The notes under the pieces were generated by a model. That model saw nothing but the letters and a program-made list of their open reading frames with translations, did not search any database and had not been told where the DNA came from. Position numbers and translations under genes: made by a program. From positions 8,883,612 to 8,947,611 of the forward strand of contig CM082594.2 in assembly GCA_040954595.2 (NCBI GenBank): DNA of 64,000 nucleotides, read 5' to 3'. How positions within the stretch are numbered: position 1 is the stretch's first letter; each line of letters begins with the position of its first letter. Shown piece after piece: positions 1 through 64,000 of the stretch. The stretch comes from Balanoglossus misakiensis. Its lineage: Eukaryota; Animalia; Hemichordata.

Positions 1-936
1 TCCCATCAAAGGCAAATTAAAAGTGTAAAATGATTGCTTCAATCAGAACTGTTAATGACTACATGCTGGAAGAACACTTTTGCCTGGCAGGGCTGTGTGT
101 CTTGCTGAGTTGTGTGGATTTATGCTGCAAACATTTTATATCAGTTCCTTAATTTAGAGCATTTAATGTCATTGACCTGCCCATTAATTTGACCATGAAT
201 TATTTTTTAATCAAAAGGTTTGTTTTGCTTTCCCCAGTGCAAGTGACCTCCCAGGCAGACCTGAAATTCTCATTTACTTAAATACTTTGCTTTCCATGAT
301 TTCAAGTTTTGTTGGATGATAAGGAAAATAGCTACCGTCTACTGGGCAGAATAAAATTTATGAAAACTCAGTCGTAATGAGGTTGATAAAATGTTGGGTT
401 GACCGTCTGAATGGGAATGGCCAAGCATTGTGATATCCCATGAGACCACCACTTTTTGCCTCTTGGTGGCGCTGGTCACGAAACAGCCAAGTTGTTAAAT
501 CTAAGAGGGCGACATTCACAATCTACACTTTATAATAGCTTGTATTGTTTCAATTATTTCAAAATCAAACCTAAACTTGGAATTTATACTCACAGTGTTT
601 AACCACAGAATGATGTTATAGAATTCATCATAAGTCAATAATCACATGCAGCAAAAAGGGAAAACCTTCTAAATGACCACTGTTTCTAAACTCGTAGTCT
701 TTCTTCTCTCCTCATTTTCCCAGTGACAATAAAGATAAAGACGATGATGATGCATCTGGTGAAGGTGGCAGTTCACAATATGGATGGAGTTACACATACA
801 GTAAGTCATAAAATTATTTATAAAAAAATGAACTAGTACAATAGTTATCAACATTATTTGACAAGTGAGTACATGTACATGTAATATGTTTTACATTCAT
901 TTACACATGCATGTGTTTTTCTATGTTTTATTTCAG

Positions 937-27700: not shown

Positions 27701-30700
27701 TTACTCGGGGATAAATTCTTCTGCTGGCATTTGGGATATTGCTTGTTTTAGATTTTCGAAGCTGTCACTGTCTTGCACAGTCGTGGTATCCGGGGAGACG
27801 GCGCCATTAGCGGCGGGGTTCGTCGCCATGGCCACCGTCTTGTAACCGTCCTCCTTGGTGTCTGCATCTCTCTTGCCTCTCAGTGTAAACCACGTGAGCA
27901 GAAAGCAGGCGAAGGCAACCATCTTGATGGCGAGTATGATACCAAAGTACTTCATGCGATAGGACGGCAGGTCGTACACCCAACACGCCGCTCGATCACC
28001 GCAGGGAGTCTGTCCCCAGTATTGGCACGTCGAGTCGAATGCAGCGCCGATGTATATAGGTGTGGGAATCCACGCTATAGGAGACAAAAAGTTGTCCGTG
28101 TAGAAAGCAAATAACATGAGTTTGGCAAGTGGTGTTATTAAACTAACTTTGACAAGAATGTGATCTATATAGATCATATTTGATCTATTGGTATGTCACA
28201 TCTAGTAAATGTTTTGAAATAGGAGGGTGTCTTACCGAAGACCTGGGAGAACATCGACCTGAGTCCGAGTGCGAAGGATTTGTCTGTTGGTTTGACGCTC
28301 CTGTAATGGACAAAAGTCATAATTATGATGAGCCCATAGCAGATAAGTAAAAGTTTGGAAGCTATGAAACTCTCTCTCTCTCCCTCCCTCTCTCTCTCCC
28401 CCCTCTATCTCTCTCTCTCTGTTTCTCTCCCCTCTCTCAAATGAAACTCACCTTAACAATATTTCAACAGCTGAAGTTTGTGGTATATGTTTCACCAAGG
28501 ATAAGATGAATGTCAGAAGTGTGAACACAACCAGCTGTTTCGTACACTGCCGTCCACAGATTCCGGGCTTGGAAGATCCACCGTCAACTTCTAACAGAGT
28601 ATATTCAGCGTCATCTGACAGCTTTGTTAAATCAAAACTCGTTGCTTTTCTGCTGTTGGTGCCGAAGTCTGGCGTGGTTGTTGCTTCGTCCAGTTGGGTA
28701 TGTGTACTTTGGTTCTTCGTTTCTTGAGCAGTGACATTTGCTGCGGTTGTTGTGACTTGCTCCAGCGCATAATACCTATCTCCGTCAGTGGACACTCCTT
28801 CAGTGGCAAATGATGCGCCATTGATGTGCGTCGTTTGTCTTTCTGTCTCCATATCGTCTACGCATGTGCAGCCGGTTAAAGTCTGTGAAGTAAAAGAAAA
28901 CCAAATCACACGAATATGTCGGATTATTAAGGGTAGGCAGACGGAAGAGAAACAAAACGAAATAAAACACCTTATGGCACAATCGCATTCCTTACAGGAG
29001 TGTCACCTTGGTAACCGTTCTTGCACCGGGTTTCTGAGCATAACACAACGGGTACTATCTTTTCAAACTTACCACGTTAGTCCCACCAGGAATCTCTGAC
29101 AATCCTCGACATCCCGCAAGACAGGCTGAATAGTAAGTGACACCGTTGGAACCACAGACTGGATTAAAGGGCGCATTTGGAGGACAAGAACATTCGCTAT
29201 TACACTGTGCACTGAGACCACTTGAAACACTGGTGTCACTATTACTGGAACACAAATTAAGATTTCATGAGATATGTACATCCAGTAAGAGGTTTCACCT
29301 CACATCGCATGACTAGGATCAGAGTCTAAAAATAACTTCAACGGTATGTCGCGTGTCACACATGTAATGTTCCATGGGTACCATGATTTGAACTTACTTG
29401 CCAAATGTATATGGATGATTGATCCCGGCAAAGGTGTAGTTTTCACAACCAATAAACAGCATTGGAAGAATTAAAACCAAACATACGACCTGGATCACAG
29501 TCGCATTCCTGGCAATGGTTTTCAAGGTCGGTTTGAACTTTCGCAAGAGGACGCCACCAACGAAGATGCCAGAAACAGAAGGGATGACGAAACCAATTGC
29601 TGCATAGATAATGGACACATAATTTTAATAATTATGTAAATACATAGCGTTAATATCAGGATCCGTTACACATAGAAGTACTTAAAGGTGCAGTGCTACC
29701 TAATAAACTTATTCACATCTGCAAAATTCTTTCAGTTTACTATACCGATCTATAACTTACCGACGATCATGGCGGCCAGAGATACGCTGGTTCTGAACTG
29801 GTTGAGAACATACTTGGTGCTGAACGACAGCACAGCGCCCAGCATAGCCGCATCGGCTGTGGTGGCTAGTATTACACACATCAATGTGGAGTTCGTGAAA
29901 AGACGCTTCATCGATCTCGGAAATTCTTTATTTCGAAAGGAAAGGCGATAAAACAACATAGATTAACACTTAAGTTGTTAGAACGTCCACGACTAGCCTA
30001 GGTTAGGTGTAAAAAAAGTAGAAATAGGTGTAAAATCACGACCACAAACCAAACAGTTGCTTGGTACTCTAATTCAAAACCTCGGGTGTTTTTTAAACGA
30101 TACGGTCCGCCTGAAAAATAACTGAAGGTATAGGTGTAAACGCACGCCTGCTTATGATCTTACCTTTCAATTTGTCGTGTAGGTACATCTGTTTAGCAAT
30201 CTCTCTGTCGCCCCTTGCACTCGCATCATCATCCTCATTTGGTTTCCTTAATTTCTTCGGTAGCATCAACAGTGGGATCACGCATAGGATCAGCGCCACG
30301 GCGTTGAAGAAGTAACCCAGCCACCAGGCACCTACCCAGCGAGGGTCGGACTTGTTGATCCCGATGGTAGACGTGTCAACTCGATAGTAATCAACGTATA
30401 TGCTGTTAAAGTATGCCGCCATCGGATAACCTATCAGCGGACCGATGCCGTACATCGCAAAGAGAATTCCTGGAACAGAATGGAAGAAATTGTTCAGAGA
30501 CTTTCCTAATGTGGCCTTCATAGAGAGGTGGAATTTATAGTGTAGCAAGGTGGCCACAATATACAGGTGGCCACTAACACTGGCTCCATTGTATATTAAA
30601 TTACTAAATTAATAAAAAAAAGAAGTACATCTTCTAAGAAATGTTGTCCAAATCTCAAAAATAACAAATAAAATGGTTCAAATTGTGTTGGCATACAAAA

Positions 30701-31479
30701 AATGATTTACGTTATTACAATACGCGGCCAATATTGCTTGATAGAAAGATGCACCAAATGGAAGGCTTACCACAATATAAGGGCGACTTCTTCCGTTCCA
30801 CGTGGTCATCAATATATGGAATGCCCAGCGTGAACAGAGGAGTGATTCCGAAACCCATGAAGAATAAGCCAAGAAATATACAGGGCAACACGGCCACACT
30901 GTGCCCGGACACTTCCTCGCTGCCACAGCCAGGACCAACGAGTTGACTGGGATCAACGGTGTGGTTTCCCGGCGAACAGAGCCCAACCGAGGTGTTTCGG
31001 ACCGCCAAGTTCCCGTACTCGTACAGATCAGACATAAACTGAGTCGAGCCAATTATCAGTAGACCCACGGCGATCAGCAGAATGTTGAACCCGATCCAAC
31101 GCGGTCGATGGCTGTTCGTCTGGCCGCCCAGATACGTCACAATGGGAAGGGATGCCAGGGAGGAGATGTCGAAGAAAGTGAAGCCCGCCCCGATCACTTT
31201 GGACGACAGACCGAACTGCCTCTCCCAGTTCACCACAGCCGTTGAAAATAGAGCCACATTGAGAGCCACGGACACCGTTGTCAACAGTATTATCACGAAC
31301 GCAACCTTGACGTTGGCAAGGAACTGGAGACTTTTTGGTCGCCATGGTCCTATTCCACAGGTGTAGTCGTCATCCACGTGATCACTGCGCGTGTGCGGTG
31401 ATTGGTCACCGTCAACGGGCCTGATCATTGGGATCTCAGTCTCCTGGTCCCTCGGCTCTTCGCTTTGGTTGACTGACAT
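27701..31479 (-). CDS. Organic anion transporting polypeptide (SLCO/OATP); exons 30771-31479, 30164-30469, 29761-29925, 29398-29599, 29073-29244, 28452-28882, 28236-28300, 27701-28074
   Basis: N-terminal CGIGPWRPKSLQ, HRPRWIG, LGIPYIDDHVERKKSPLY, the OATP signature DPRWVGAWWLG, Kazal-like CNSECSC...FNPVCGSNGVTYYSACLAGC, and C-terminal IPTPIYIGAAFDSTCQYW...CG...ACWVYD. Consistent GT-AG phases. Subfamily not assignable by eye. Confidence 0.95.
28371..28437. repeat. (CT)n-rich microsatellite in an SLCO intron
   Basis: Imperfect ctctct/ccct run. Confidence 0.85.
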
Positions 31480-33522: not shown

Positions 33523-35771
33523 TTATATCTGTTCCAAAAATAATTGATGTGATGATTTTATATCTTTGCAATCTCGCAAATCTGTCTGCAATTTTCGGGC
33601 TCTTTCCAAACACGCAGCAATGTTCTCATCATTTATTTTATCAACTATCGCTTTATGCACATTTTTCGTGTCTTCCTCCCAGGGATCGTTAGTTATCCCG
33701 GTATCAACACTAACAAACTCATCATGGTCGCTTCGAGGGAATACATCCAGCAGAAATTGCACAATTCCTGTGTACCCTGGCACAAGAACTGGTATCCCAG
33801 CCTGCATTGCAAGATAAGCAGCGAAATTGAATGAATCTACCTTTTCAGGGGCTACATACAGGCAACTCTGCAAAATACTAGTTTTGAAGTAGCTGAGTGA
33901 TTTGTTCGAATCGATGTTGATTCGGAGATATTTTGAGGATGCTTTGTCTTCCAAATACTTTCTGAACTTTTGAACGAATTTGGGTTCGACTCCGATCACA
34001 TTCCAGACGGGGAGTTTAAACTCATAGTGATGCGGCAAATGACACGAGTTTGCGGCCCTTCCCATTGCCATGGCGAGGAGAGCATAATTTTCGAAATCTT
34101 CCTCATCTTCTAAATTGACCATTGTCAGAACTTGTTTCTTTCGGCCAGGTGGGGTTACCTTCAGGACAATAAAACCATTGGTTATTTGTGGCGAGTGACA
34201 GTAATGAGCGACCTCTTTGTTGACAATTCCTCTGTACTTGTTTTCGAAATGATCGTAAACTTGGGGGCCAACTGAAAAGATCACATCAGCCTGGGCAGCG
34301 TACTCAAACGCCTTCCATTCTCTCTCTGTATCCCTGTGATCCTCAGGAATAGTGAGATTCAAAAGAATCACTTTAGCCCGAGGGAAGATAGATTTTTTCA
34401 ACTCAAAAGCTACCTCTGCTAGTTCATTGTCTGAACATGCTACCAGTGTTTCGACGCCTTGAATTGAGGTGAGGTGGGGATATAGGCTTTCGTGCTGGAA
34501 TAACCAGTCAATCGTTGGATCCTGATTGAGAGATTTTATCTTTTTCTCGTCTGGATGGATTAGAGTGACACCAGTCTTCTGATCTTTGACAAATGGCTTC
34601 ATACTTCTGCTCAGTTCTGTGATGTAAGGCGTCACCTCATTTGCAATGGAGCTGGCCAATTTGTGATAAAACTGGCCCCTTCCATGTGACGAGGACTCTG
34701 ACATTGGGGTCAAGAAGATTGCTGAAATATATAAACGGGTTTGAAAATATAGTCTCATGTAATTACTATAAGATTCTATAACACTGAAGTGTGTGCTTGA
34801 ATTTTGGATTTCACAAAATTGTCTATAGACATACGATTGATCGGTCTCCCCCCCCCCCAAAAAAAAAACATTATGTCAACTTTGAAGGGTGTCGGATCAC
34901 GAAATATAGTTTACCTGATCTTTCGCCGTCACATTTATCAGATTTACGGGTCTGTGGCAGATCTGTTGAGACAGCGCACTGCTGTCGAGTTCCGTCCGCG
35001 ACAAGGCTTGGTTGATTAACTGCAACAGCTGACGTAGTTGGTGATTCATCGTCACGTTGCCAAGGCTGGACCACTGTTTTGCCCTTGTCGCTTCGTTTCG
35101 GATCGTGTTCCTGGAAGCTCAGATAACTCAGTTGTGCCAGTTCGACGTCGTCACGGTGTTCGTGATCTTGTACGGGTTGGCGAGATTCGTGTTGACTTTC
35201 TCCGTGTGTTGACGTCGGGGGCAAATTCTCATCGGTATGTCCACCGCCAACCTCAAACTTGACAACGGCTGTGCCAGATCCGTGGTCGCTCTCATCGTCA
35301 CTGGTCCAACCGGGGTGGGTTTCTTGTATCGGGCTGGATGATTTCCGATTCTCGATCTGTGAGCACCTGTACGCTATTATATCGTCGTCGTCAGTATTTT
35401 CACCGGAAAGGCAAACACTCGACAGTCGTCGAGGTAAGGAGAGTGATAATGACGATCTTCGACGATTAACAAGATCAGACCGGGGAATCTCGTTTCCACT
35501 GTCGAGATCAACTCTAAAAAGTTCAAGAAAGAATACAAGTTCAAATCACCAAATAATTCAAAGTCAACGTCTAACAGAAAATAGTAGGCCAAGCTATCAC
35601 CATTATACTGTTTTTTATAATTCGTGAAAGCTTGTTGATTATCAGACATGACACAAGTTATCGAAATTTCAAATAAATTGGAAGTATGTATACTCACGAG
35701 GCAAATCCGCTATCATGTTCATCTGATTGTTGTCCGGGTTCAGATAAATCTTTGGAAATGGACTGGTCCAT
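33523..35771 (-). CDS. Protein with a disordered N-terminus and a C-terminal degenerate GT-B (GT4/Glycos_transf_1-like) domain; exons 35698-35771, 34915-35513, 33523-34721
   Basis: ATG at 35771; phase-2 and phase-1 introns join in frame (GFAS|VDLD..., ERS|AIFLTP). The last exon carries AAQADVIFSVGPQVYDHFENKYR, WNVIGV and SCLYVAPEKVDSFNFAAYLAMQAGIPVLVPGYTGI, which aligns with the GT4 'PSxxExFGLxxLEAxxxGxPVLV' region. Confidence 0.7.
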
Positions 35772-38012: not shown

Positions 38013-41000
38013 CTAATACGAATCAGCTGACGTCAGCGTTTCCAGTTTGTCCAATGCGGTGCTCAGTTTGCCAATTTCTTCCATGTTTTTCACTCCCAGC
38101 TCTTTGTGTGCGTAGTCGTAGAAGAATTCCGGAGCCTTGAAGTAAGCAAGACGACACAAAATGAACGAAGCAGTGGGAAAATGAGCAGCCATTTGAAAAA
38201 TACTGCATCAAATTTCAACAAACTGCAACAAATAACAGCATTTCACCGAAAACGTGAAATAAAAAGAATACAACTAATATACTGACCTCAATTCTTAAAT
38301 GCATCATCGATACAAGATTTGGTCCGGTAAGCTCAGCGCTCAGACTACAAACACAATGCAGAGTGAAACTTGAAGTTCATTACCCGTGGAACAATTATTG
38401 CATGTTTAACGCAGCATACTTTGGCTTGAACTCTCCCCCTCCTTTCCCTCTCTACCTCTACCTCCACCTCTCTCTCCACTCGTCTCCTCACTCTCCCCTC
38501 CCCTCTCTCTCCCTCCTCTCTCTCGTACAACAGGATAAGAAAAGAATAGACATAACACGAAAATCGAAACTTACAATTCGAGATTGTTCTGTTTCAGCCA
38601 TGCTGCCACTCCCATTTCGCTCCATTTCTTGGCCGGGTGGTATCTCATTGACGGTTTGATTCTGTCTGCAACGACGCTCTTCACACTGGAACCGCTCTGG
38701 GCTTGTTTTGCGACCCGTTTCATCAAATCGTCCAGTCCCTTATCCACAGACTGTGTGAAATCGACGTACAGCCTCTGGGCAACGACTAAACCAAGCCAGT
38801 TCATAGGTTTGTAATTCTCTAACCTGAGAGGGATGATGTGTTTTCCGTGTTCCATGGCATACTCCGCTTCTACGATAGAAGTTTGAAGTTGAAAACATCA
38901 AACCGTGAAGTAAACCTCACCTAGCTGACAGGAAAACCCTAATAGACCATTTCCGAACCCCACGAGACCCTGCGAGATCTCGCGTGACCAGGCACATGCC
39001 ACAGGCTAAATGCAAATTAGAGGTGTTTGCGTTCTCATACTGTAAGCACCAATATGCTATAAGTATACTTACCTCGTCTGCAGTTTGGGCTTTCGTAGTA
39101 AGCCTCTGCGATGCAAATCAGAACAATTGATGCGTTGTTGACAGCGTCGGCCATTGATTCTGTCAGAGATCCTCCCATTTTCTCCACATCAATCCACACA
39201 CCATAACCGTTTCTTTCCAAGAACTTCTTTATCTTGATGATCAAACTCTGGTAGCGCCAAGGGTAGCTAATCATGATGTGTCCACTCTTGTTTGTCGCTG
39301 CTTTGTCAGACACTGGTTTTTCTTTTGATGAGAACAAAAATATGTTAATTAGTATAAAAAGTATCTGAAAAAGCGGAAGTTTGAAAGAAATTCGCTATTC
39401 ACCCGGAAGTGATCGATCTGAATATAGTTCCCGGACTTACCTTTCTTGTCTTGCAAATTACTGAGGGCGCCGTGGGCTGCTTTCTTCACTCTCTGACTTC
39501 CGGTATCCAGAGAGCGGATGGTTAGGAGTGATTTTATGATGCTCTTGTTCTCTTTCAGTTTAGTTTTACAGTCGTCGTTGAAGGACAGATGATAAATGAT
39601 TTCGACGCCATAGTACTGTTCAGATTCGGTTTTCCTGGCCATAAGTTTCTCGCAGACCTCTAAGAGGCCAGCGCCGAGTAACTTCTCGTGGTGTTGTCGG
39701 TTATTTGCAGTGGCTCGGATTGAGTATGCCACCGCCTGAAAATTAAAACAAAGTGAGGTTTCATTGTGGTCCTATCCATGTTAGCTTAGGGGAGAACCAT
39801 TTGATTTCTGGGAGTTGAGGATTTTTGGAAACATATCACCAGGTGGGTGCGGTGCACACATCACTCTTACCTCAATTGAGATGGTCCCATAGCCATATTT
39901 GATGTATTCTACGCTCGAGTCTGATATATCGTTCTTGTGAAGTAGTTTTAAGCAGTGAGTGATGGAGTCATCGTCTGTATGACCCTCTTCAGTCTCCCGG
40001 TCTAAATTCACAACATCCAACATCATATAAGACATCAGCCTGAACACGTCATCTTCTGAGGTCTTGAAGTGGGTCATCGTTTCAATGACCCCGTGCTCGA
40101 CGAAGTATGATCTCTTCACTCCGCAGCGCAGGCTGTTGAACAACAATCCGATGTAATAGAACACAATATCTTTAATTGCATCCTGAAAAAAAATACAGAA
40201 TTACTGTCGTCAATGATAATCAAACATAAACCCTTGGAACAATTATTGCACGCCTAACTTAGTAGACCTTAACTCTCTTCCTCACTTAAGGTAAAAAGTT
40301 ATTGAAAGAAAATTAACAAAGTGAACGTCACCTGTCATAAATCAATTTATGCGTATACTGTACATCCGTGACATATATATAGTTCTAATCTTTAATTTAA
40401 AATCGCAAAATGCCGATTTTCTCACCTCTTTATATTTTTTCAGTATATCTTCTACGTGCCCATGTACGTGTATGCTGACGTAAGGTTCCTTCATTAAATT
40501 TCTAAGAATCTCCGCCAGAAACCCACTTTCCATCAGATGGTGACAAACGATTGGACTTTCGCTCGATGTGTTCAGCAGCGTATGTAAAACCTTTCTATAT
40601 ATCACTGTGGCATCTGTTACAACGTCCTGGTCGAGTTCTGTGTGCCAGCAAGCGAAAAGGGTTGATGCGAATTCCTGCAAAGCTATATCTAGACCATCAC
40701 AGGCGCACTGATCGGACAATACTCGCAATTTTTGCGATGGGCGGAGAAATTCTGCGTGGAACTTGTCAATTTTGTATTCGTAATAAGCATCGGAAACGTC
40801 TTTGAGCAGGGAGGTCAAATCGCTTTTACTTCCGGTTTTCAGTCCCTTCGTTGCATTTTCTATGACGAATTTGGCCTTGATAAAATCAGCCTGGTGTTCC
40901 AGAAAGTCGATTTCCGGCTGCTCTAATTTTTTGGTCCGGAATTCCTGAAGATATGTCTCCATAGCTTCGTCTCGAACAGCCTCGACGGGTTGAGGCCCGA

Positions 41001-41037
41001 CAACATTCTTGCTGTGGCGACTTGCACCGGAGCCCAT
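38013..41037 (-). CDS. ARM-like / TIR / SAM-like protein, paralog A (~647 aa); exons 40426-41037, 39871-40182, 39441-39735, 39073-39321, 38575-38869, 38287-38344, 38013-38135
   Basis: Starts MGSGAS (myristoylation consensus). Helical ARM-like repeats (LLGAGLLEVCEKLM, IIYHLSFNDDCK, KKAAHGALSNL). TIR_2-type domain HIMISY...GYGVWID...MADAVNNASIVLICIAEAYYESPNCRR|EAEYA...IIPLRL...WLG...LYVDF. C-terminal SAM-like KWSEMGVAAWL. All exons join in frame via GT-AG. Confidence 0.88.
38431..38523. repeat. Polypyrimidine CT-rich low-complexity tract in an intron of TIR paralog A
   Basis: About 90 nt composed almost entirely of C and T. Confidence 0.8.
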
Positions 41038-42672
41038 TTTGATTTAATGTAATTAAAATACAAACACTGAAAGAAAACAAAATTAGAATTGGTTTTCATA
41101 ACTTGCAGTTGCTTTGTATAAAAAGAAAACAACTGAGAAGGACAGCAACTTCGGCCAAAAACAGTAGTCGTTTCGTTTCTGTCAACTGCATATTATTGTT
41201 CTCGTTCTTAATCTGAATGGCACAGTCTACACAGGTGCATGGTTTGGTCAAGTCAACTCTGCCAATAGTTCCCTTTATGTAGTGTAATTTGTTGTTTCGT
41301 AACCACCTGAAACATTGCCAACATTTGACGCCGCCAAGAAAAAGAAGGATTGAGTACACGTTTCTCATACACGATCGATCTCCTTCGAAAATGTTGGACA
41401 CTTTGACTTATTTTCTGCAACTCTAAACTTGCAAACCGTAATTTGGTGACTCTTTTCGGATGATTTCATGAACATTCTCTGCCAGTGCCACATATCCCAT
41501 TTCTGGGCCAACCTCTTTACCAAACTTTAACAATTCAATCTTTTATTCGACATCTTTCTATTTGACGCTGTTCCATACATCACCTGAAGGGTTGCGTGAC
41601 ACCAATTTAATGTAGATGACAGGGACACAATAGGTAAAGGTCACTGCTATGGCCACGCGGCACTATAGCACAACAACAATACAAATCACTTGGCAGCGGT
41701 GCATGGGCATATAAACACCAGAACTCGCTTTAAGTGCTACAACGTCCAAGTGTAGGGAAATCAAGCAAAACGATACGATTATTTTGGTCTGAAAATTGTT
41801 TTCACGCGGTATTGTACTTGCTTGCAAAGAAAGAAGTATATTACAGGTGAAATTTCAGAAATACATTCCAAGACTTACCTTAGCTGTCTTCGCGGCTTCG
41901 GGTTGGAACACTATTGTATATACTGTGCCTAAGAAACAACTGTGTGAAGGCGTTTTGTGGACTGGAGCTGAGTACGCATGTACTACAAACGTCTTTATGT
42001 CAGATTTGCTTGCTAACAATGCCGAGTGGGTCATAGCGTATGTCGGTCACTCGATTATAGTCCATTGGACGAAATATATGGCACGAAGTGACCTCGCATT
42101 TTTTTACATTATCCATAAAGAGATCATATCATTACAGAAGCAGCATCAATTTTTAATCCCGGCAAAATGAAGGATATATTCAACAACACACTCGACGTAT
42201 AGCATTGTCAACATAACACAGTTATACCGATAGTACTATCATCACATGTATGTTTTGCATGGTCCTACTGACTACCCCCCAGGTTATGCATCATAAGTAC
42301 AATTTACTATGTATAGAGCTAAGATTTGTTATGATTTTGAATTTCGGCTTTCAAAATCTGAATGATTGTCTTCGAATTTCCCAGGTTCGGAAATATCACT
42401 GGACACTGAAACGGACAGACACATTTATGTGTGCATTTCCTACGGGATATCTTTCAATACATCTGTTAGAGGATCACCCTAAAATTGAGGAAAATAAATA
42501 AAATAAAAATAATATAACAAAAAGCATACTTTCGACAAATTTAGCATCACAAAAAAGCTGTAAATAGTCTAATAAGAACTCTGGTCTGATAGCCCTCCAA
42601 TGCAGCATTTGGTAACAATCTGCCCTCCTACCTACCCAAGGATGGCCCTCCTTTCCGCCGAGTTTGCACTGC

Positions 42673-50863
<8,191 letters not shown>

Positions 50864-51257
50864 GTTGTCACCGCTTGTTTGAACACCGTAATCGAGCTTC
50901 GTTTCGATACAACTTTGAAATGTCATTCACAAACACTTGTGACGAAATAGAATAAATGGCAGAGTTAGGCCCACTACTATAAACACTAATAAATCTAACA
51001 AACTTCATTGAACACGCGTGTGTGTCGTTGATTGGCCTGGTCATACTCATGGCTTTTGGCCAATAACGGACTGTTGACATCACCGAAACTGGCACTGAGA
51101 AATTGGGTTGATATATTGACTAAGCATTTCATAAAAGTCTCAAATAACAGTGGCCAGTTGGAGATCTTGCCTGACCTTGAAGAAGAATGACCGCGCAGCG
51201 ACACTCAGTGGCATTCAGACGCGACGCTTTCTTATTTAAAATGTACATTGAACTCAC

Positions 51258-52155
51258 CTGTATACAGTTACACGCGTTTAGTGAGACTTGTGAATACAAC
51301 TCAGACACTGATGGAACAGCGCAGCTCCTACAAGAGTATAGTGAAAGGTCATTTGGTTACAACCAGTTGAGGTCACACAATGCAAAGTGAAAGAGGTGTG
51401 GTGGCGACAGGGTAGTTTCTGCGCTTTCTGGTTGAGTCCAGCTAAACGATAAAATGTAAAAGAAGACAACCATGCTGTAAGGCTTGGAACACAATTTCTA
51501 TCGTACAATATTTGACGCGAACTGCAATTAGGCAAAAATCTCAAAAAGCCAAGTTAGATATATTTGTGTATAGGACTAAGAAAATAACATGTTAAATTTT
51601 TTTAAAAGCATTAGTGTCGATTCTATGCATATGGAACACTTTCAACCAGCTTAATAGACCACAGGTATTAGCTTGCTCTAATTGGGGGCAAATTTCCGAC
51701 GTTTGTCCAACAATGACAGTCAGAATGACGGTATCAATTACTTGAAGTAACTTAGAGACCGTGCACTTTTACATATTGACGCTTCTTGGTCCATACATAA
51801 TGTATATTGGACGTTTTGTGAATGTGCACTGACATTTGAACCACAGAAAGTTGTGGTCAACATGGGTCTTCGGATTGGCTTAAGCAAGAGAGAAAGAAAA
51901 TAATCTTCGGCCTAAAAGCATGATCTGTGTACGATATGAGCGGTCGTCTGGGGCATCTAAGTTCGCTCATTGTGTCTTTTCGTCATGTTTACAGTAATTC
52001 CATGTGGTTTGCTTTGAATAGCCTAAGTGCGATCGATTTTGCACGATGTCGAACACAACAGTAAATTTGCATATGAATAACACCTGCTGTAATGCCTCAC
52101 TGTCTGGCAGTAATCGCCACCAACCGGTTCACAACTTGTTTCTTCTTAAACATAG
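51258..52155. promoter_or_regulatory. Putative bidirectional promoter region between the TRPM gene and TIR paralog B, including their non-coding first exons
   Basis: A minus-strand donor CAG|GTGAGT at 51258 and a plus-strand donor TAG|GTAAGT at 52155 point away from each other. Matching acceptors lie just upstream of each ATG (~50912 and 53143). Confidence 0.5.
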
Positions 52156-53187
52156 GTAAGTACATGTCCTTCATAACGCTACATTTGCCATTCGGATTTT
52201 TTTCTTTGCATGCATTGACTGTTTTCAAACGACACGTAATGGTTGAAACACGCTGGAATGTATTTTAATCACTCGGATAAGTTAGAAGTTTTCGTATTGT
52301 GTCGGGTGGGGATGGATGGGTGGGTTGTTGATCTGTTGTCAGGCGGAGGCATACTCGCCCGAGGTTAAATATAACAGCTTTATTCTGAACCCACACTTAG
52401 TTTTATTTTACTACAGCGCCATTCTGTATTCGTAGCCCTATAGTATACTTTTTCTGAAAAACAGACAAAGTGTGAAATTCCTTCCATAGACAGAACATCT
52501 TTCCTGTTGATCTAATCCATCATATGGGCATAACATTATTAATGACATTCGTGATTTTTAACAACCCTTTTCACGCTAGGTTTCAATAGAGGACACATAG
52601 TTTGTGATAAAATGTACAGGTCTCATTTTTGGTAAAATTAGAAAATACGAGCTGTTTTTGACCGTCGTACGCGTGTGCAAACCGTTACCAACCAAAATAT
52701 ACAGTACACACATTTAATAATTGAGCGCGATTAATTATATATCGGCAAAGTGCAAATAATCGATGTTTGTTATACACGACCGAACTCCAAATTGAGATTT
52801 AAATATATTTTCATAATGAATGGACATCTCTCTGCAACAACACTGACATGACTTAACCCAATGCAGGTCATGAAGACTTTTAAGTGAAAAGGTATGTCTG
52901 TTGAGGTTGAATGAACGAAGTAAAAGGCGATCGGGTTACTAGGCTTGGAGTTTGAGATGCTTTCTTATTGTACGCCGTGCGGTAAGACGAGTAGAAAAAT
53001 GTAGCTCAGTGTGAATTTTCGATACATAAAGCCCTTTTCTGAGAGTCAGACGCACTATCATAAAGATACGGTTTCCTTTGACCCAAGGGGATTCTGATAA
53101 CATGTTATGTGCAACTTTCAACACGTTTTCTTTGCGCTTGCAGTCGTGTATTCTGGTTTCACGAAGGGCTGAATCAGGTACAGCACC

Positions 53188-56100
53188 ATGGATAGAGAAG
53201 AATGTTCACTTTTCTCGCCTGAAAACCTTCAAGAACACCGACGGCGACAGGCAGAACACCCGGAGATCGACCTGATCGTCATGCGCGAAAAGTTTATCAA
53301 AGCCAAGGATATCATAGACTCGGCCAGCGCTGACCCAACCTCCAGGAAGTCTGTCATGGGCGTCCGGGATATTATAGATCGTGAAAATCTTACCTCGCCT
53401 TGGATCAAGTTCGACAGTACGGAACAGCGGCGATTGGTGTGCGATCAGATGGCTTATGATGGCGTCACTGAAGCCCTGTGCAGGTATTCCTCGTGTCTCC
53501 TAGCAACCGGTCCCGTCGAAAGGAGCCCCGAAATCTTGGGCGTCTACGTGAAGAGCATGCAGGCGATATGGACCCCAAGCGACAATAGCCCCCTCATGTG
53601 CCAGTGCTGTCGGCAGTCGGGATTTCTAGAGAAGATTCTAGAAGAATTGAAAGCGGATAAATATCTACGGCAAAGTCAAGAACCTGGACTGACGGTAAAC
53701 GATTTTTTTCAGAAGTTCTCTAACTTTGATTTAACGAGAACCAACCAACAGTCTGCATCGTCTACATTTCAATCAATGACTTCATTGATTTTTTTACCTG
53801 TATTTCTTTCCAGAACCAATACACAACATTAAAATTGTACCTTGGGATAGTCTACAACTGCGCAAAAGCCGGAGTTCGTCGCAGTTTCTTTACCGACAGG
53901 GGCATTGAGAAGACCATCTTACCCTACACCAAGTCAAGAAGTGAACTATTGGTGGCGCTGTCGCACATGATCGTCGCCCATGTCGTGGATCTGACTGACC
54001 CCGTGACGGAGGGGACGGACACACCCGAGGGTGTTACGGCAACCATAACATTCCTGATGAAAGTTTTGAACAAGGCAGTTTCGCTACTGAGAGCAACCTT
54101 TGGCGAAATCATCGCAGACGGTACAAAGTTCACCGTTGAGGTATGGTAGTCACTATTGGCCTATTGGCCTATCTATATGCTTAACACATGGAAAGAAATA
54201 ATCACCCCATAGATGGAATATGCACCATATATTATCAATACAGACTGTATCAGAGTGATTGTTTTATATTAAACGCCTCTACAGCTTTCACTTAGACGAA
54301 AACTTGTTCCCTTAATTGTTGACCGAGTTTGAAAAGTCGTAGAAAAGTACCTGAAACGCGTCGTTTTGTATTCTTAAGTTTTTAGGTACAAACTTGACGT
54401 TTCGTGTAATTTCATTGCAGGAAGTTGTCCATTCTCTCATGGCACTATCGAGAAGAAGTCAGAACAAGGCGAAAATCGTCGATGCAGGCGCTTTGCCTGT
54501 GATGGTACAGCTGATGAAGAGGGGAGACGAGGGCGAACGATATTACGCTGTGATGACACTTTTCCATCTGGCATTTGAGGAAGCCAATATTCCCAAAATC
54601 AAACAGCAACCGGATTTAATTAAATCACTTTTGATTTTAGTATCTGATGAGAGTAGCAGAGTTAGCCAAAGCGCCAGTGGAGCTATATACACCCTCCAAA
54701 GAAATGGGGGTAAGATTTGACGTGCATGTTTTGCCTTCGTTTATTGTTGGTCTTTTGGCTTTCTGGTTTGTATCATAAACATGATAGAGTTGATATTATC
54801 TTTTGAAGGTCCCAAGCCTGTTGAGAACGGGAAGATTCGGACAGCTTCATCAACGTTGAGATCAACATCCGGGCACATCGCAATTAGCTGTCCAGCGGAA
54901 TACAAGAAACTGATGGGGAGGTTGAGAAGTTCCCTTCAAAGGAAAGGTTACAATGTGTGGATGGACGAGCTGGAGAATGGAAGTTGCCGGACACAGGTCG
55001 AGTCTATGGAAAGGGCAATAAGGGAGTCTTCCGTGGTTCTGGTATGCGCGTGCCAGGCTTACGAAGCCAGTCCAACATGTCGCCTAGGTAACACATCCTC
55101 TTATTGCAGAGGGGAGGGAGAGGGGCTCACCGAATACATGGTTTATCTGTAGCCAAGTACTTGCATGGGAAGAGGTTTTTGATTCGAAATCGGTTTATCA
55201 CCAGTGAATAGTGCAGCGTCGGGTTCAATAACCGACATTATGTTTCCAATATAAGACGTTGTGGGCTTACCTGTACAACCAGCTTCGTATCCAGAGAAAT
55301 GGCCTGGTTCCTCGGTCCACCCATGAAATAGTGGCGCCTTCAAGATACGTTCAGTTTCCCACACAACCGTGTCCATGAGAGTTTCAGTCATATCGAAATC
55401 GCGCAGAGCAACCCTTCAACGACGTGCCTTGCTTCAGGTTCTCTCGAATAAAATGAGGCAAGCATGCTCCGAATGGAAATGATTAGCATATGTTCACTAT
55501 TTACAAACCAACCAATCAGAAAGAGTTGCTAAAATTCAAATTAACAAGGTGCTTAGATACGTCATCGTTTATTATAATTATGCGTTTAATCTACGTCAAG
55601 TTATCCCTTTATTTGCAGAAGCTGAGTTGGCACACAAACTTGATAAACGGATAATTCCTCTGAAAGTGGAGAGATACGAGCCGATTGATTGGGTTTCTGT
55701 GATAATTAGTATGAAGTTGTATGTCGATTTTACCACAGTCCCGTTCAAGGACTGTGTGGGGAAGATTGTCCAGGTGATCGGCAACCAGGGTATAGGTGAC
55801 TGTGACGTCACAGGGAAAGAGGGGCTGACCAAAGAGAGGAAGGTACCCTCCTCCCGATATCATCCGGCAAAATTTTGGAACGATGACGCGCTGAAGAAAT
55901 GGATGAGAGAAAATAATTTGGCAATGTAAGTTTGATGGACACTAGCTCTCTTTGCTCTATAATAACGAAAGTTTCGTTATCTAAAACATATCTACTGGTC
56001 ATCTAATTATGAAAAATATTGTATCATATTCCTTTTTATTTGCAGATCATATCCCAACTTCACGGGAAAAACTTTGGTGTTTTTGATGAACCTTCGACTT

Positions 56101-56330
56101 GAGGTATGTACCAATCTACAGAGAAATATTCTTTTGCCTTATCTTAGCCATGTCAACTTTCTGGATCGACAGAGTTTACCCTGAAGGCTATTTTTTTCTC
56201 TCTCTTATAGGCCACTGAATTCTTTTACAACTATGTCTACAAAGAGTTGGGCATCACCGATTTGGATGCACTGCGAAAACTCAGCGATGCCTTGCACAAG
56301 CTTGAAGACTTATCTCAGTCACATGGATGA
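53188..56330 (+). CDS. ARM-like / TIR / SAM-like protein, paralog B (~628 aa); exons 53188-53694, 53814-54140, 54421-54709, 54809-55087, 55619-55925, 56046-56103, 56211-56330
   Basis: Colinear with paralog A (HPEIDLIV...FIKAK vs QPEIDFLE...FIKAK; RYHPAK in both; EFFY in both). ARM-like NKAKIVDAGALPVMVQLM...TLFHLAF. TIR GHIAISC...GYNVWMD...MERAIRESSVVLVC...YEASPTCRL|EAELA...IIPLKV...LYVDF. SAM-like FWNDDALKKWM. Same intron phases as A (0,0,1,1,2,0). Confidence 0.88.
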
Positions 56331-57092: not shown

Positions 57093-60000
57093 TTAGAAAT
57101 ACTCGTGGTCAAGAAGACCTGGCTGACTCAAGTTATCAGGACTTCTGTTCATTTCATCGCCTCTCCAATTCCTTCTGGTTTGAAATCTTGACGAGTCACT
57201 CGACCGTGTTATACGCGTAGAGCCTCCACTGTAGTCGGAACTTGAAGACTGTGAATATTAAAGAAAGGGGATGTTTAAATTTGCAATACCAATTTATCTC
57301 TTGGTTCTTTCTGATATTGTCATCCAATGATGCTTCACCCAAATGAAAATGATAGACCCAAGAGAATTTGATTGGCCCACTGAGGTTTCGGTTAATTCCC
57401 ACAGACACACATATTCTAGGATCTCACCTCTTGTCCAGTAACGATAAATGGTCGAATAAAGTCAGCTCTTTCTAGGCGGCTTAAAGGATTCTCTGTGGCA
57501 CCATAGCTGTCGAACTGCGGGATCCGCGCTCTCATACGCTCCTGAAAATAAGAAGAAGGATATAAGAGTAAAATTCCTAAGATCAGGGTGCATTCGATGA
57601 TTGTGATTTGAACGATCAGTTTTGAAATGGTGGGGGTAAACAAAACAAGTTAGCATGATCATGATTACAACTGTCTGCCGTTGCTCTTTTTGCAAATTAA
57701 TTTGATGTGAAGAATTCTTCTTAGATTCTAAAGTAAGCAAACTACCCCAGAACTTGTAATCACCTGCATTAGAGATGCATTCTGTATGATTCTGAAGAAT
57801 CCCTTCCTTCGACTGCTCTCTGGTCTTGGTTCTGCCTCTGGTTCGGAGCTGGTAGTACTGCCCTGCCAAGGATCGGACGAAAAGAATCTATCGTCCACAG
57901 GAAGGGATCTTTCACGCGGCCATTGGCCGTAATCGCCACCAGCAGTCGCTCCACGATTGCGATACATCAACGGTTGACGCAATCGTCGTCGTTGCCGCTG
58001 TCGTTTTCTGGTTTTCTGCAGGTGAATGCAGTAAAAGACAACTGCAACAGTGACCCCGACCACTAGTATGAAAGCAGTTGTTCCAAGTCCAATAGCTATT
58101 GGACCAAGGATGTCGTCATCTGGTGGAGAAAATGAAAAACAAGTACATTTAATTTATTACATCACAAAACAGCAATGCTAAGATGGTACTACATCATTCA
58201 AGCTTACATAGTTGCAGTATCAGTTTGTCGTGTCCATGAGTATCAATGGTAAAAGGGTAATCACTCTGACTCTTTGACATGAGGATCGTGAATTTTACCT
58301 TTTGGGTCGACTTCTCCAACATCAGTGACATTAGTAGGTTCAGTAACGGTTTCCATCACAGTTATGTTGCATCTATTTCCTGAATATTCTGGTAAACACC
58401 TGAAAGAATACAGACACATGTTATTGATTGATTGATGGTTGGAATATGTAGTTGTCAACTGATTGATTGATTGATTGAGTGAGTGAGTTGGTAGTCATCA
58501 CCATCTTTACAAATCCCAAATATGCATTGTTCCATGTTCCCCTAATATACTGGTACATGACTCCACATGTGTATATGCTAACAAGCATTGCATATAGATA
58601 TGTCATGAATAAATACTTACTGACAGCTTATGTTTACAAGATTTTCTACAACACAAGTACCGCCATTCAAGCAGTAATCCTGAGGGCAAATTTCTGAAGG
58701 AAATCAAAACGACAAAACACAGAGTTATCGTACAATGTTTGGATATTCATGTCTACTACGGTACTAAGAAAATGACTGATGTAAATGATCTAATCAGGAA
58801 AAAGTTTAATACTTGGTTGATGCACTATTATCATACTGTGACAAAACAACATCATATGTTCATGAAGGAAATTATTTCACAAACATACCTTCACATTTTC
58901 TGCCTGGTCTATATTCCGATGTATCTTCCAATCCTTCGTTACACTGACACGTAAAACTGCCATTTGTGTTTAAACATGTTGCATTTACGGCACAATCGTT
59001 GGCGTTTACATTTGCACATTCGTTGTAGTCTGGTGGGAACAGAAAATACCAGAGCAAAAAATATTACTGAGACATCACAGTGTGTCTGCATGCGAGTCTG
59101 TCTGTCAGCACTATCTCCTTGCCTGCCTGTCTGTCTTTCTGTATGTATGTCCGTCTGTCCACTAACTTTGTATCTAGCACTGAAATGATTTCAAGACAAA
59201 AAATTACCATGAAACGCCACACTTGCAGCTACGATAAGTAACGACACCGAACCAGATGTGATCTTTATCTCCCCAAACTCGTCTTCAAATGACAGCATAA
59301 TCTCTTTCAGTTTATCTGCACCGTAAGTCGATTCCTCAGAGTGATACGTAACCAACTCAACATCCACACTGCCATTTTGGAACTGAAGATTGTCAGCGCC
59401 GTAGTAGTCGTCTTTGGTGATGGGACTTCTCATGAAAATGTATCTCAGCTAATGAAAAGGAAACAGAAGTAAAGTCCACCAAATCATTGACAGTACTGAA
59501 TTGTTGATACGTCAATTCACATTTTCCTATAAGGTGATGTGGTTTGTAATGAAAATAAATCAAATCTGCTTCAAAATCCAGCCAGGCTTACCGTTTCCTT
59601 TATTTTATTAGCAAGACTTGAAAACTCAGCACTTGTTGGGTCAGCCATATAATCATTATATTTAGCTCTGACATCATTGACTTCTAGGATAATAAATCTG
59701 AGCGAAAATGCTCTGGCATCTACAAAACAAGGTTATTATTTAAGAGTATCATCATTATTAATATCTGTCATACATCTATATCTCTTCAAAATTTTCTGGA
59801 AAACTATACGTAATAAAGTTTACACAAATTTTATGCAAATATCACCATAACCAAAAAACTTAAGACCACTATTATAATGAACAACTGTCAGTCAATTGTA
59901 GAGACTTACATGAGCAGGTTCCGTTATTTTGGTTGATTTTGAAATACCCTGGGAGACATTCGCACTGGTAACTTCCATCTGTATTCACACACTGTAGTTG

Positions 60001-63000
60001 TGTACTGTTACATAAATTGGGAGTTTCAGCACATTCGTTGATATCTGAATGAAAAAAGTGGGCAGTTGATTAAATCTTTGCTACATGAAAACCCAGGCCA
60101 GTAGTCTGTTGCTTTACGGATAATATATCCCAGAGTTCAATGGGCCTTTGTGACCAAAGGCTTGTCTGACTAGTGTCCAACTTACTGAGTACATTGTACT
60201 ATTATGATTGGCTATATTTGACAAAATTCTTGGTCATGAGATTACATACATGTACAATCAAAGTGTAGGCTTTAAGCTATTCAATCATGCTGTACCTTGA
60301 CAAGTGCCTGTGGTACTATCCAGTATCCATCCTTCATTGCAGTCGCACGTGTAATTCCCATCGCTTATAAACACACATGAAGCCCTCTGATCGCAGATAA
60401 AAGTCTGGTCAAAGCAAGGATTGTTGACTGAAAAAAAGAAAGAAAACTATCTATTTAGCATTTCACGTTCATAGATAGGGCTGTCTTTTTCATCCCTCTG
60501 TTATTTTAAAAACTCTGTGCTATGATTCATGCTATCTGGAAGATTGGTGCGTAATATAATTTTCATTTTAATACCTGGTACTTTGACTTTGAATGATCCA
60601 GGTATGACATAGTCATTTTCATGGATGATATTTCGGTATCTTCCCTTCAATCCATCTTCAAATGCATTCTCAATATCTGTGGCTGTAACGTTTGATTCTG
60701 GCACTAAGTCAATGAGAAACGTCACCAATACTCTCGAGTCGGCATCACTCATACTGATGACCCGGCTTCCAATGTAATCATCTGATATGCTGCTGTTTCC
60801 GAAGAGATGGTTCAGCTGTGAAAATTGCAAGAGAAAATATCAAGGTGTTATGTATATGTACTCCTGCTATCGTATTTACTAAATGGTACTTGTTTCTGGA
60901 AATGAATGTGTACATATAACCTGCACTACATGCAATTTAAAGGAAATCTATTTTGCGCAAAGATGTAGAAACAAGAGCTTACATCATTTTCTGTTATGTC
61001 GGCATACGTCTGATATTGCATGGTTCCACTGTAGCTGAGATCGGCCGTGTAAGTCCACACTAATCCACCAGCTCCGATGTATATCACAGATGCCTCGAAG
61101 GATATTATTTCTGGGGATAAAAAAATCAATGTCTGTGAAACTTGTTGATTGTGCCATTATCATTTATTACAAGCCCAGGCAAGTTGGTTCTTCCAGATCT
61201 TCGACATAAAGATAAACCCACTCACCTTTACATATGTCATCTTGTCTGTAGTACCCAACTAGACATTCACAGGTATAATTACCAGGAACGTTCAGGCATC
61301 TCTCATTCATATCGTAGTCACATGGTTTAGTGGTACACTCATCAATATCTGGTAAAATTATTTTGGAAAAATATTTGTTTTAATAATCCAACATAAACAA
61401 CATTGAACAGACCATCCCACCAAATTCCATTTAAATCGAGGCATCAACTTTGCCTGCAAAACATGTTGAAAAAAAGTTTTCCTACCAGTACATGTAACTC
61501 CATCGCCTTCATATCCGCTCTCACATTCACAGTAGTATTGTCCGTCAGTGTTCGTGCATATCCCTGCTTCTGAGTCACAGTTGTCTGTTGCGTGCAAACA
61601 CTCATCAAAATCTTTTAGAAGCAAAATAGAAGAAAGAAAAACCTGAGATTAGTTAACAAATAAAACCCCTAACTTCTTTTACCAATTAACTACAATGATG
61701 ATAACCTAATCAAGGGTTGAAAGAAGTTACTTTAACACAGGTCTGACTGTACTATTTTTATATCACCAAAGTAACACTGAGGTTGACAACATGGTAGTTT
61801 ACCTTCACAGATTCTGCCATCGCTGTCACTGACTGTCAAATACCCAGATGGGCACATGCAGGTGTAAGCACTGATGTAATTGGTGCACTCAGCCACTGGG
61901 TCACAATTATTCAAGTTGCTTGATGAACATTCGTCTACATCTGTAATGAGTAAGAACATATCATTAGTATCAGATAAGGACATTCTGTCTGTCCACAAAC
62001 ATTTACTGAAGTTGGGAGAAGTTCCTGAATGTATACTAGATTGTCAAACCATTTTTATGCAAAATTGCTCTTTAAAATTTGAAACTTAAATAGTGACTAG
62101 TTTCTTATGGTCCTCCCGGTTAAATGAGTTGACAATGACACTTCAATTGTGAATGATGTACTAAATATTCTCACCAACACAATGCGTTCCATTTCCGGTA
62201 AAGCCACTGCTACAAGTACACTCGTAAGACCCGGGGGTGTTGCTACATATGGCACTTTCATCGCAAATGGTTGGATTCTCTTGGCATTCGTCGATGTCAA
62301 CGCATTCCTCCCTGCCATAGGAGCGGTACCCCTCTTGGCAGGTACACAGGTAAGTGTAGTCGATGTTCTGGCAGACTGAATTGTTACCACAGTTGTTGGC
62401 GTTTGGACTGGAACATTCATCGATGTCTGTGTATTGAAAATTGTCAAACAATCAAGGTTTGAGACGTGTTATAAGCAAAAGGAATAATACCAGGTAATAT
62501 AACAAGAACTATTACATTTATCTGATATGTAAATCATTGAACAATCGACATGTATCACTTATCAGCCTTTCATTCTTTATTTACCTGCGCAGTGAGTTCC
62601 ATTGCCATGGAAACCAACCGGACAGTCACAACGATAACTTCCAGCTGTGTTGTTACATGTTGCTATGGCATCACAATCCGCTTTCCTTGGGTCATCCGCT
62701 TCCAGATTACACTCGTCAACATCTGGAAGAAAAAGAAGACAAAAATTTCAATCATGGCTCAGTTGGTCACCAAGAAAGTTACTTCACTTAAGCTAAAGCA
62801 TAGATCATCTCAGCATCGTGTACGTAACATCAGTACATCAATGCAAGCAGGAACTCTTTATAGATTGCCAGCAAATAATATCCATTTGCTAAATTCCGGT
62901 AAAGTTTCATAGCTAAGATTAATATAATATTACCTAAAATGCACAACATAGACCACTTACCAAAGCACAGCGCCCCGTCTCCCTGGAAACCAGGATTACA

Positions 63001-63947
63001 AACACAAGTGTAGGATCCAATATTGTTTGTACATCTGGCATCTGAATGACAGTTATCCAAACTCTCACTGCATTCATCAATATCTGGAATTAAAGAGAAT
63101 GAATTCTGAAGTCAGCCAGGGGTTCATTGAGTATAGTATTCAGAAGAATCTCAAGAAATACTGACTGTGTTTCTTGCGTTTACTGTTATCATTGCCAATC
63201 TTCAATACACACCAAATTCTTTTGGCCAGTTCTACGACTACTTTGAAATGAAACCAATGAACTTCATGAAGTAAATATGCCATACCTTCACAGATCAGTC
63301 CAGTCTTGAGATATCCATCTTTGCAAGTACAATTGTATGATCCAATGGTATTTTCACATTCAGCATTAATGTCGCAAGGTGATAGAAGGTTGCATTCATC
63401 AACATCTGAAAAGCAATTAAAAATAAAAACCTGTTGACCATGCACAAAGAACAACACAAAAGCAAGTACAAGCTCTGCTGTGAATGTTAGTGAGTGTTGA
63501 TGTGGTTATTCTTATGTGAAGCGTATACTTACCCTCGCAGGTGAATCCGTCGCCAAGGTAACCATCCATACACTCACAGAAGTACGATCCAATGGTGTTG
63601 TTACAAACGGCATTGGAACTACAGCCTGGGTCCCCATCACTACATTCATTGAAATCTATAAAACAATACATTCATAAAAGTGACATGTGATGTTTATACT
63701 GTACCAGTACAGGTACCTTCAATCCTATGTTTTATCAGTACAGAATATTGTGTGGTTGCACATCATCCAAAGGGGCATAAAAGCTCAGTCCCAATACAAA
63801 CAAGAATGACAGTATACCTTGACATATTCCTGTGACGTTTGTATACCCAGTATCACATACACATTGGTAGCCACCATACATATTGACACACACTTCATTT
63901 TGATCTTGTTTGCAATCATCTGAATCATCTTGACACTCGTTAATATC
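57093..63947 (-). CDS. Single-pass membrane protein with tandem Ca-binding EGF repeats and two SEA domains (mucin/fibrillin-like), 3' part; continues beyond the window
   Basis: About 14 EGF modules, mostly one per exon (DIDEC/DVDEC...CxNTxGSYxCxC). SEA-like exon pairs at 60574-61110 and 59208-59720. TM helix ([25 protein letters not shown]) near 58030-58100, basic stop-transfer [11 protein letters not shown], and a cytoplasmic tail ending ...LLDHEYF* at 57093. Confidence 0.85.
58421..58487. repeat. (ATTG)n / (GAGT)n tetranucleotide microsatellite
   Basis: attgattgattg runs, then gagtgagtgagt, in an intron. Confidence 0.75.
59096..59160. repeat. Degenerate (TGTC)n microsatellite
   Basis: gtctgtctgtc...cctgcctgtctgtc...gtatgtatgtccgtctgtcc in an intron. 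Confidence 0.65.
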
Positions 63948-64000
63948 TGCAACAAAGATTAATTAAGATAATGAACTATCCTATGATAACTTACAGTAAA

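Follow-up and report, generated by a model that had tools for sequence, protein, structure and literature searches.

Signalling from a TIR enzyme to a TRPM channel has been described in mammalian axons, where SARM1 makes cyclic ADP-ribose (cADPR) or ADP-ribose (ADPR) that act on TRPM2 (PMC8704956; PMC11025887). TRPM2 knockdown blocks the axon degeneration induced by the SARM1 TIR domain, and axon death proceeds partly via TRPM2 (PMC8704956). In type I Thoeris systems of bacteria, the genes for ThsB (TIR), often several, lie beside the gene for the SLOG sensor ThsA (SIR2-SLOG) (bioRxiv 10.1101/2021.01.06.425286; PMC10022894), and the SLOG pockets of ThsA and TRPM2 superimpose (bioRxiv 10.1101/2021.01.06.425286). 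An action on TRPM SLOG domains has been proposed for TIR products (PMC11025887) and for the products of a SIR2 protein (bioRxiv 2024.09.18.613514). Here, we describe a 64,000-nucleotide stretch of the hemichordate Balanoglossus misakiensis (GCA_040954595.2, contig CM082594.2, positions 8,883,612 to 8,947,611, forward strand; called the window hereafter), in which a TRPM channel gene is flanked by two ARM-TIR-SAM paralogs, A and B. With a probability of about 40%, the locus would act as one module, in which A makes ADPR that opens the channel and B regulates A.

The TIR-TRPM-TIR arrangement reported by the original prediction was recovered as three intact, spliceable genes, with GT-AG introns throughout and without internal stops (Table 1). 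The exons were modelled by hand from six-frame reads of the window. RefSeq proteins of the acorn worm Ptychodera flava (P. flava) align colinearly onto them, which backs the exon models independently of RNA; the start codon and the last exon of the channel are provisional. A and B share 33% identity (E 1e-110) and all six intron phases (0,0,1,1,2,0), in agreement with the proposed paralogy. Single-exon Pfam matches to TIR_2, Arm, LSDAT_euk (SLOG), TRPM2, and Ion_trans across the locus, together with a SAM fold in the model of the A ortholog, bear out the predicted domain content. The alphaC Glu said to be kept in both TIR domains is present (E490 in A, E468 in B), and its codon is split by an intron in both paralogs (39073/38869 in A; 55087/55619 in B). 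DNA depth is even across the three genes in run X1, which is probably the source sample and hence not independent; the even depth excludes a collapsed repeat. Pseudogene and mis-assembly readings were ruled out by the open, spliceable models, the even depth, and the allele pattern of B given below. Short interspersed repeats with very high depth and loose ends occur at 38950-38986, 48620-48690, 50470-50540, and 55500-55550, the third just upstream of the first coding exon of the channel.

The channel is composed of a Cys-rich N-terminus, MHR1/2 (SLOG), MHR3/4, S1-S6, the TRP helix, and a terminal coiled coil, and shares 58% identity with its P. flava ortholog (P0004, XP_070535546/7). Its earlier label, TRPM2-like, fits the ADPR pocket and fails at the C-terminus. 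All six ADPR-contact residues of a published set (T122, T158, Y246, R253, T286, and R308; PMC7201885) are kept in the channel and in the ortholog, a count that expresses agreement with TRPM2 and may or may not set ADPR-gated TRPMs apart. In the channel, the residues corresponding to human G333 and T339 (bioRxiv 2024.03.18.584035; PMC6759353) are kept as well. The three SLOG exons tested all score best against TRPM2 structures, and the best PDB scores are 623 bits for TRPM2, 601 for TRPM3, and 541 for TRPM7, which is compatible with a beta-like channel but not decisive. Residues E821, Q824, N847, D850, and E1039, which we take to form the putative Ca2+ site, are kept, as is what is presumably the acidic filter residue.

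The NUDT9-H domain is absent: the channel model stops at 1,154 residues and the ortholog at 1,160, with no match to the NUDIX family. A NUDT9-like phrase in the last channel intron was dropped, as it is intronic and Pfam was blank for the two open reading frames tested there. An upstream exon matching the first 25 residues of the ortholog was looked for and not found. TRPM clades that lack NUDT9-H, named beta-like and gamma, have been described (PMC13143021). Judged by domain loss, the channel would not be TRPM2 proper and fits one of these NUDT9-H-less clades. In invertebrate TRPM2, MHR1/2 alone suffices for ADPR gating, and the sea-anemone channel is gated without NUDT9-H (PMC7201883). The channel of the window is likely ADPR-gated.

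Both flanking genes place armadillo repeats ahead of TIR_2, as seen by Pfam on exons and orthologs and by the match of the family profile to armadillo structures. Their order is ARM-TIR-SAM with one SAM; in SARM1 it is ARM-SAM-SAM-TIR with a C-terminal TIR. In A, the TIR domain spans residues 421-540 and SAM 570-641; in B, TIR spans 397-519. A begins with a myristoylation-type MGxxxS motif that is absent from B. An MGxxxS/T start occurs in 43 of 155 family sequences including A (fragments counted), which suggests a membrane-held family. The AlphaFold2 model of the A ortholog (P0001, XP_070535406; predicted local distance difference test 80.6) shows armadillo repeats and a TIR fold that superimposes on the SARM1 TIR (9hq0) with Z 16.5 and a root-mean-square deviation (rmsd) of 2.1 over 124 aligned residues. 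Its C-terminus folds as SAM in the model (best Z 8.6, rmsd 2.9, 71 aligned), and weak SAM_3, SAM_2, and SAM_1 matches were obtained in 13, 11, and 9 of 38 family members, respectively. The Foldseek list is topped by SARM1 entries, with low TM-scores, and the BB loop of A aligns with that of SARM1. The closest PDB sequence match is Cat1, a bacterial TIR enzyme (E 0.0075). Three TIR residues are kept nearly throughout the 155 sequences: Glu in 152, the first-strand Tyr in 152, and the BB-loop Asp in 153. That an Asn for the alphaC Trp would favour linear ADPR is an idea to which we gave no weight, as a look for it in PMC10022894 and PMC11025887 came up empty. A match of the P0001 N-terminus to diphtheria toxin (E 0.07) was dismissed as chance.

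The two paralogs have conserved opposite domains. FastTree on 42 rows (40 of 95 full-coverage matches plus A and B; midpoint root only) joins A with P0001 (100) and B with P0005 (XP_070535400; 100); the four members form one clade (99), whose sister is a pair of Glandiceps proteins (99). By this topology, the sandwich is the product of a single A/B duplication within acorn worms. A and its ortholog share 59% identity overall, but 49% in ARM, 88% in TIR, and 72% in SAM (Fisher p 2e-14). In B, the order is inverted, with 72% overall, 80% in ARM, 61% in TIR, and 75% in SAM (Fisher p 4e-5). As a control for the inversion, we used 6,216 non-independent pairs among 112 family sequences (coverage-filtered from 167 candidates). 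Among the 303 pairs with an ARM identity of 40-92%, TIR minus ARM averaged +0.195 (standard deviation 0.081) and was negative in just 2; the B-ortholog pair is the minimum of the 303 at -0.19.

Conservation in 70% or more of the 155 family sequences defines 49 TIR columns. A and its ortholog each keep 43 of them, B keeps 31, and the B ortholog 32, against a family median of 44. B has Cys where the first-strand Tyr is expected, the BB loop is altered in B and in its ortholog, and the near-invariant BB-loop Asp is lost in the latter; Glu is retained in all four proteins. The alphaC Glu is present in over 70% of TIR domains as a whole and does not correlate with activity (PMC7075850). Hence, the claim that both TIRs are NAD+-cleaving enzymes gains from the family positions of A and loses for B. 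A is likely the catalytic copy, a predicted NAD+-cleaving enzyme, and B probably a regulator or an enzyme of weak activity; this division of labour is well supported by sequence. Of 80 allele differences in B, 40 were listed (one sample): 11 are exonic, 8 of these silent, and all six indels are non-coding. As this pattern is mostly silent or non-coding, B is not a pseudogene. A predicted complex of the orthologs of A and B, limited to their TIR-SAM parts, scored 0.02 against a mark of 0.34, which counts neither for nor against binding.

The proposed mechanism is as follows. A, anchored at membranes via myristoylation, would respond, through the ARM domains, to a cue of stress or infection and become active. 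It would then cluster through SAM and TIR and release ADPR or an isomer. ADPR and Ca2+ would open the channel by MHR1/2 alone, as in the sea-anemone TRPM2, and B, with its drifted TIR and conserved ARM, would serve as regulator of A. Cations would then enter persistently, and cell death might follow: as the channel has no NUDT9-H, we propose that it lacks built-in destruction of the ligand. Such a module appears to be of recent origin, because the A/B duplication lies inside the acorn worms.

The rival that survives best holds that A and B are local duplicates acting by NAD+ depletion or on other targets, and that an unrelated TRPM gene between them has been kept in place by slow rearrangement. 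Choosing between this explanation and the module is nearly a toss-up: the low chance of adjacency and the biochemical fit are weighed against the rarity of functional gene clusters in animals, the failure to see linkage in other lineages, and the selection that a large scan brings. On assumed gene counts, a TRPM gene would adjoin an ARM-TIR gene by chance in about 0.5-2% of genomes. A bystander channel would not explain why the full ADPR pocket is retained despite NUDT9-H loss, why one gene class yields the known ligand of the other, or why B and the channel stand head-to-head. The interval between the latter two may contain non-coding first exons and a common promoter.

Spacing does not help the module. 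The spacers of 0.8 kb and less than 1 kb described originally are obtained only with presumed non-coding first exons, placed by donor-like sites at 41878, 51257, and 52156; a polyadenylation-type hexamer lies at 42157 in the channel-A spacer. Between coding parts, the channel stop is 1.6 kb from the A start, and the channel start 2.8 kb from the B start. Unrelated neighbours are as near, with about 2.0 kb between a transporter and a glycosyltransferase gene, at most 2.5 kb from the latter to the A stop, and about 1.1 kb from B to an EGF/SEA gene; one further gap is 5.7 kb. As the whole window is compact, compactness is no argument for an operon-like unit, and this part of the original prediction was abandoned.

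In P. flava, the orthologs of A, B, and the channel lie on one sequence of 40,130,686 bases, with accession numbers within 146; the remaining family members map to other chromosomes, and their numbers are far off. The shared chromosome fits a conserved cluster, although adjacency is not thereby established. The following points weigh against the module. Functional clustering of genes is, to our knowledge, rare in animals. A and B stem from one duplication, which by itself explains the sandwich, so the flanking TIR genes are not two independent neighbours. Microsynteny among acorn worms is probably strong, and a large scan will turn up suggestive neighbours. The P. flava channel accession falls outside the A-B interval, and 10-19% of pairs on one chromosome would be as close as 146 by chance, assuming 1,500-3,000 proteins per chromosome. 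Both families are multi-copy, with eight TRPMs in hemichordates (PMC13143021) and at least four TIR family members in P. flava, and the ortholog channel, while keeping the six contact residues, has lost the equivalent of human T339.

Outside the acorn worms, no linkage emerged, in tests that are weak. A TRPM sequence at E <= 1 stood beside none of 79 metagenome family loci, only 8 of which reach 10 kb (79 of 242 loci confirmed; 55 non-redundant, 313 kb). None of six named members from Saccoglossus, the lancelets B. floridae and B. belcheri, and the coral Orbicella, which are not A/B orthologs, lies within 146 numbers of a TRPM listed in the part of Table S1 of PMC13143021 that was used (nearest distances 209 and 552). 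A TIR-TRPM fusion was found in none of 154 family proteins. Family clusters without evidence for a channel were seen in Saccoglossus (two members on a 712,592-base scaffold) and Glandiceps (two members on one chromosome), as expected for a bystander; the weakness of the tests in other lineages limits what these results can say for it.

We consider it improbable that neither TIR is a useful NAD+-cleaving enzyme and that A and B are adaptors for other TIR proteins or for the channel, with assembly as their mode of signalling. Most animal TIR domains signal in this way, and the commonness of the alphaC Glu, noted above, is in line with it. The best structural match of the ortholog TIR model is the TIR of the Hydra receptor TRR-2 (Z 17.9), MyD88 and IL-1RAcP are level with SARM1, and ThsB follows at Z 14.3. 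Similarity to the SARM1 TIR sequence is not significant (phmmer E 0.25-0.77 for P0001), and no measured activity is reported for any family member in the literature consulted. An adaptor would not, however, be expected to preserve Glu, Tyr, and Asp across the family, to have Cat1 as its closest PDB sequence match, or to carry accessory ARM and SAM domains that mirror SARM1. Least probable of all is the reading nearest to the original prediction, in which both paralogs are active on different substrates or yield different products, one or both feed the channel, and the B pocket makes another nucleotide, since the Glu and surrounding helix kept in B and its ortholog and the intact state of B, including its alleles, are outweighed by a TIR only 61% identical between species and an ortholog without the BB-loop Asp, which speak for relaxed constraint rather than a conserved new specificity.

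The glycosyltransferase next to A belongs to a family of conflict systems, and is only a hint of an immune role. The exon ahead of its PF20706 part is acidic and of low complexity and matches no Pfam family.

Table 1 Positions of the three genes, their spacers, and the neighbouring genes in the window
Feature	Position	Strand	Remarks
Paralog A, ARM-TIR_2-SAM	38013..41037	-	7 coding exons, 647 residues
Paralog A exons	41037-40426, 40182-39871, 39735-39441, 39321-39073, 38869-38575, 38344-38287, 38135-38013	-	
TRPM channel	42673..50379	-	24 coding exons, 1,154 residues
Paralog B, ARM-TIR_2-SAM	53188..56330	+	7 coding exons, 628 residues
Paralog B exons	53188-53694, 53814-54140, 54421-54709, 54809-55087, 55619-55925, 56046-56103, 56211-56330	+	
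Channel-A spacer	41878..42672	-	Donor-like site 41878 is a possible end of a non-coding first exon of A, unconfirmed
Head-to-head interval between the channel and B start codons	50380..53187	.	2.8 kb, includes the repeat near 50470-50540
Family-4 glycosyltransferase of conflict systems (PF20706)	33523..35545	-	Pfam E 4e-24; neighbour, membership in the locus not claimed
Open frame with C2H2 zinc fingers	885-6233	+	1,783 codons
F-box/LRR gene	18620-22019	+	
OATP (organic-anion) transporter	27701-31479	-	
EGF/SEA membrane protein	about 57420-64000	-	

The ARM-TIR-SAM family is large, with 216 representatives at E <= 1e-30; atlas members are mostly from molluscs, rotifers, and green algae, and named members (24 of 154 proteins looked up) come from lancelets, tunicates, a brachiopod, abalones, a coral, an annelid, and a lungfish. 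The lungfish, Protopterus annectens, has an annotated ARM-TIR-SAM member (P0026), which indicates that the family reached vertebrates. Variant architectures (P0007, P0009, P0071) include tandem ARM-TIR-SAM units in Dimorphilus, three consecutive TIRs in Clavelina, and TIRs interspersed in numerous ankyrin repeats. Many metagenome copies (L001-L024) match over 300-530 residues uninterrupted and thus have no introns, unlike the seven-exon genes of the window. The first exon of A as a query gave no homolog among 758 candidates. In viral contigs, the channel had no match and the family alignment none among 38 candidates, and in prokaryote genomes, five weak TIR_2 matches were obtained, none with an ARM-TIR-SAM gene. 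One of five prokaryotic loci inspected, a single case in Nodosilinea (L081:3162-9258), carries a TRPM-type SLOG gene that stands alone (LSDAT_prok, E 4e-59). ShlB and a TIR-TIR-TIR-CHASE2 gene lie divergent from it, the latter 2 kb away on the opposite strand. Invertebrate ARM-TIR proteins are reportedly classed as ecTIR-DC. ARM-TIR genes appear in immune surveys without an assigned function, 11 of them in Aplysia (PMC9334734), and several eukaryotic TIR clades are uncharacterised (PMC13142454).

ARM-TIR-SAM proteins and NUDT9-H-less TRPMs are two large invertebrate families without measured function in the literature consulted, and the locus pairs them. For experiments, it offers a probable enzyme, whose drifted sister is a natural control, and a channel in which the ADPR pocket is intact; the P. 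flava orthologs are available in RefSeq. If the genes are coupled, nucleotide signalling from TIR to SLOG, as in bacteria and in SARM1-TRPM2, can be hard-wired as an animal gene cluster. Even with a bystander channel, A and B would be a clean natural example of the division between enzyme and regulator in a SARM1-like protein. The more specific idea of a de novo, Thoeris-like animal locus, in which duplication divided a SARM1-like protein into a regulator with a conserved ARM (B) and an enzyme with a conserved TIR and a rapidly evolving ARM (A), both flanking a TRPM that has shed its ADPR-destroying domain and is a dedicated nucleotide-gated effector, we regard as doubtful. If it were true, it would give the ARM-TIR-SAM family its first function and the NUDT9-H-less invertebrate TRPMs their first ligand source.

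As an actual Thoeris system, the locus did not stand up to comparison. Its SLOG domain is fused to an ion channel and not to a SIR2 NAD+-cleaving domain as in ThsA, and none of four proteins matches the PADLOC Thoeris models at E 0.01. Linkage has come to light in no more than two related species, in weak tests. The likeness lies in the placement of several TIR genes beside a SLOG-sensor gene. With SARM1-TRPM2, the locus shares an ARM/SAM/TIR protein that would act upstream of a TRPM gated through SLOG; it differs in the ARM-TIR-SAM order, the single SAM, the two paralogs of split conservation, the missing NUDT9-H, and the adjacency of the genes. Paired plant NLRs are described as sensor and executor. 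Like A and B, such pairs, e.g., RRS1/RPS4 (PMC9153377), are linked paralogs with a likely catalytic and a likely regulatory member; A and B have neither NB-ARC nor LRR.

By their ARM-TIR_2 order, their SAM, and their position in the tree, A and B belong to the invertebrate ARM-TIR proteins (PMC9334734), in whose other members neither the opposite domain conservation of the pair nor a TRPM neighbour was seen. The channel resembles the TRPM beta-like and gamma clades, which lack NUDT9-H, have several hemichordate copies, and carry the RefSeq label TRPM2-like; the main text of their description, in which the term TIR is absent, gives no ligand or TIR neighbour for them (PMC13143021). The original claim that no clustered animal version is known holds in so far as no linked animal TIR-TRPM system was found in the literature searched, which covers few subscription papers; the signalling idea itself is already published. 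Thus, if coupled, the locus would work like SARM1-TRPM2 or type I Thoeris while being a member of neither; the SARM1-TRPM2 signalling logic is already known, and what is new here is the opposite domain conservation of A and B.

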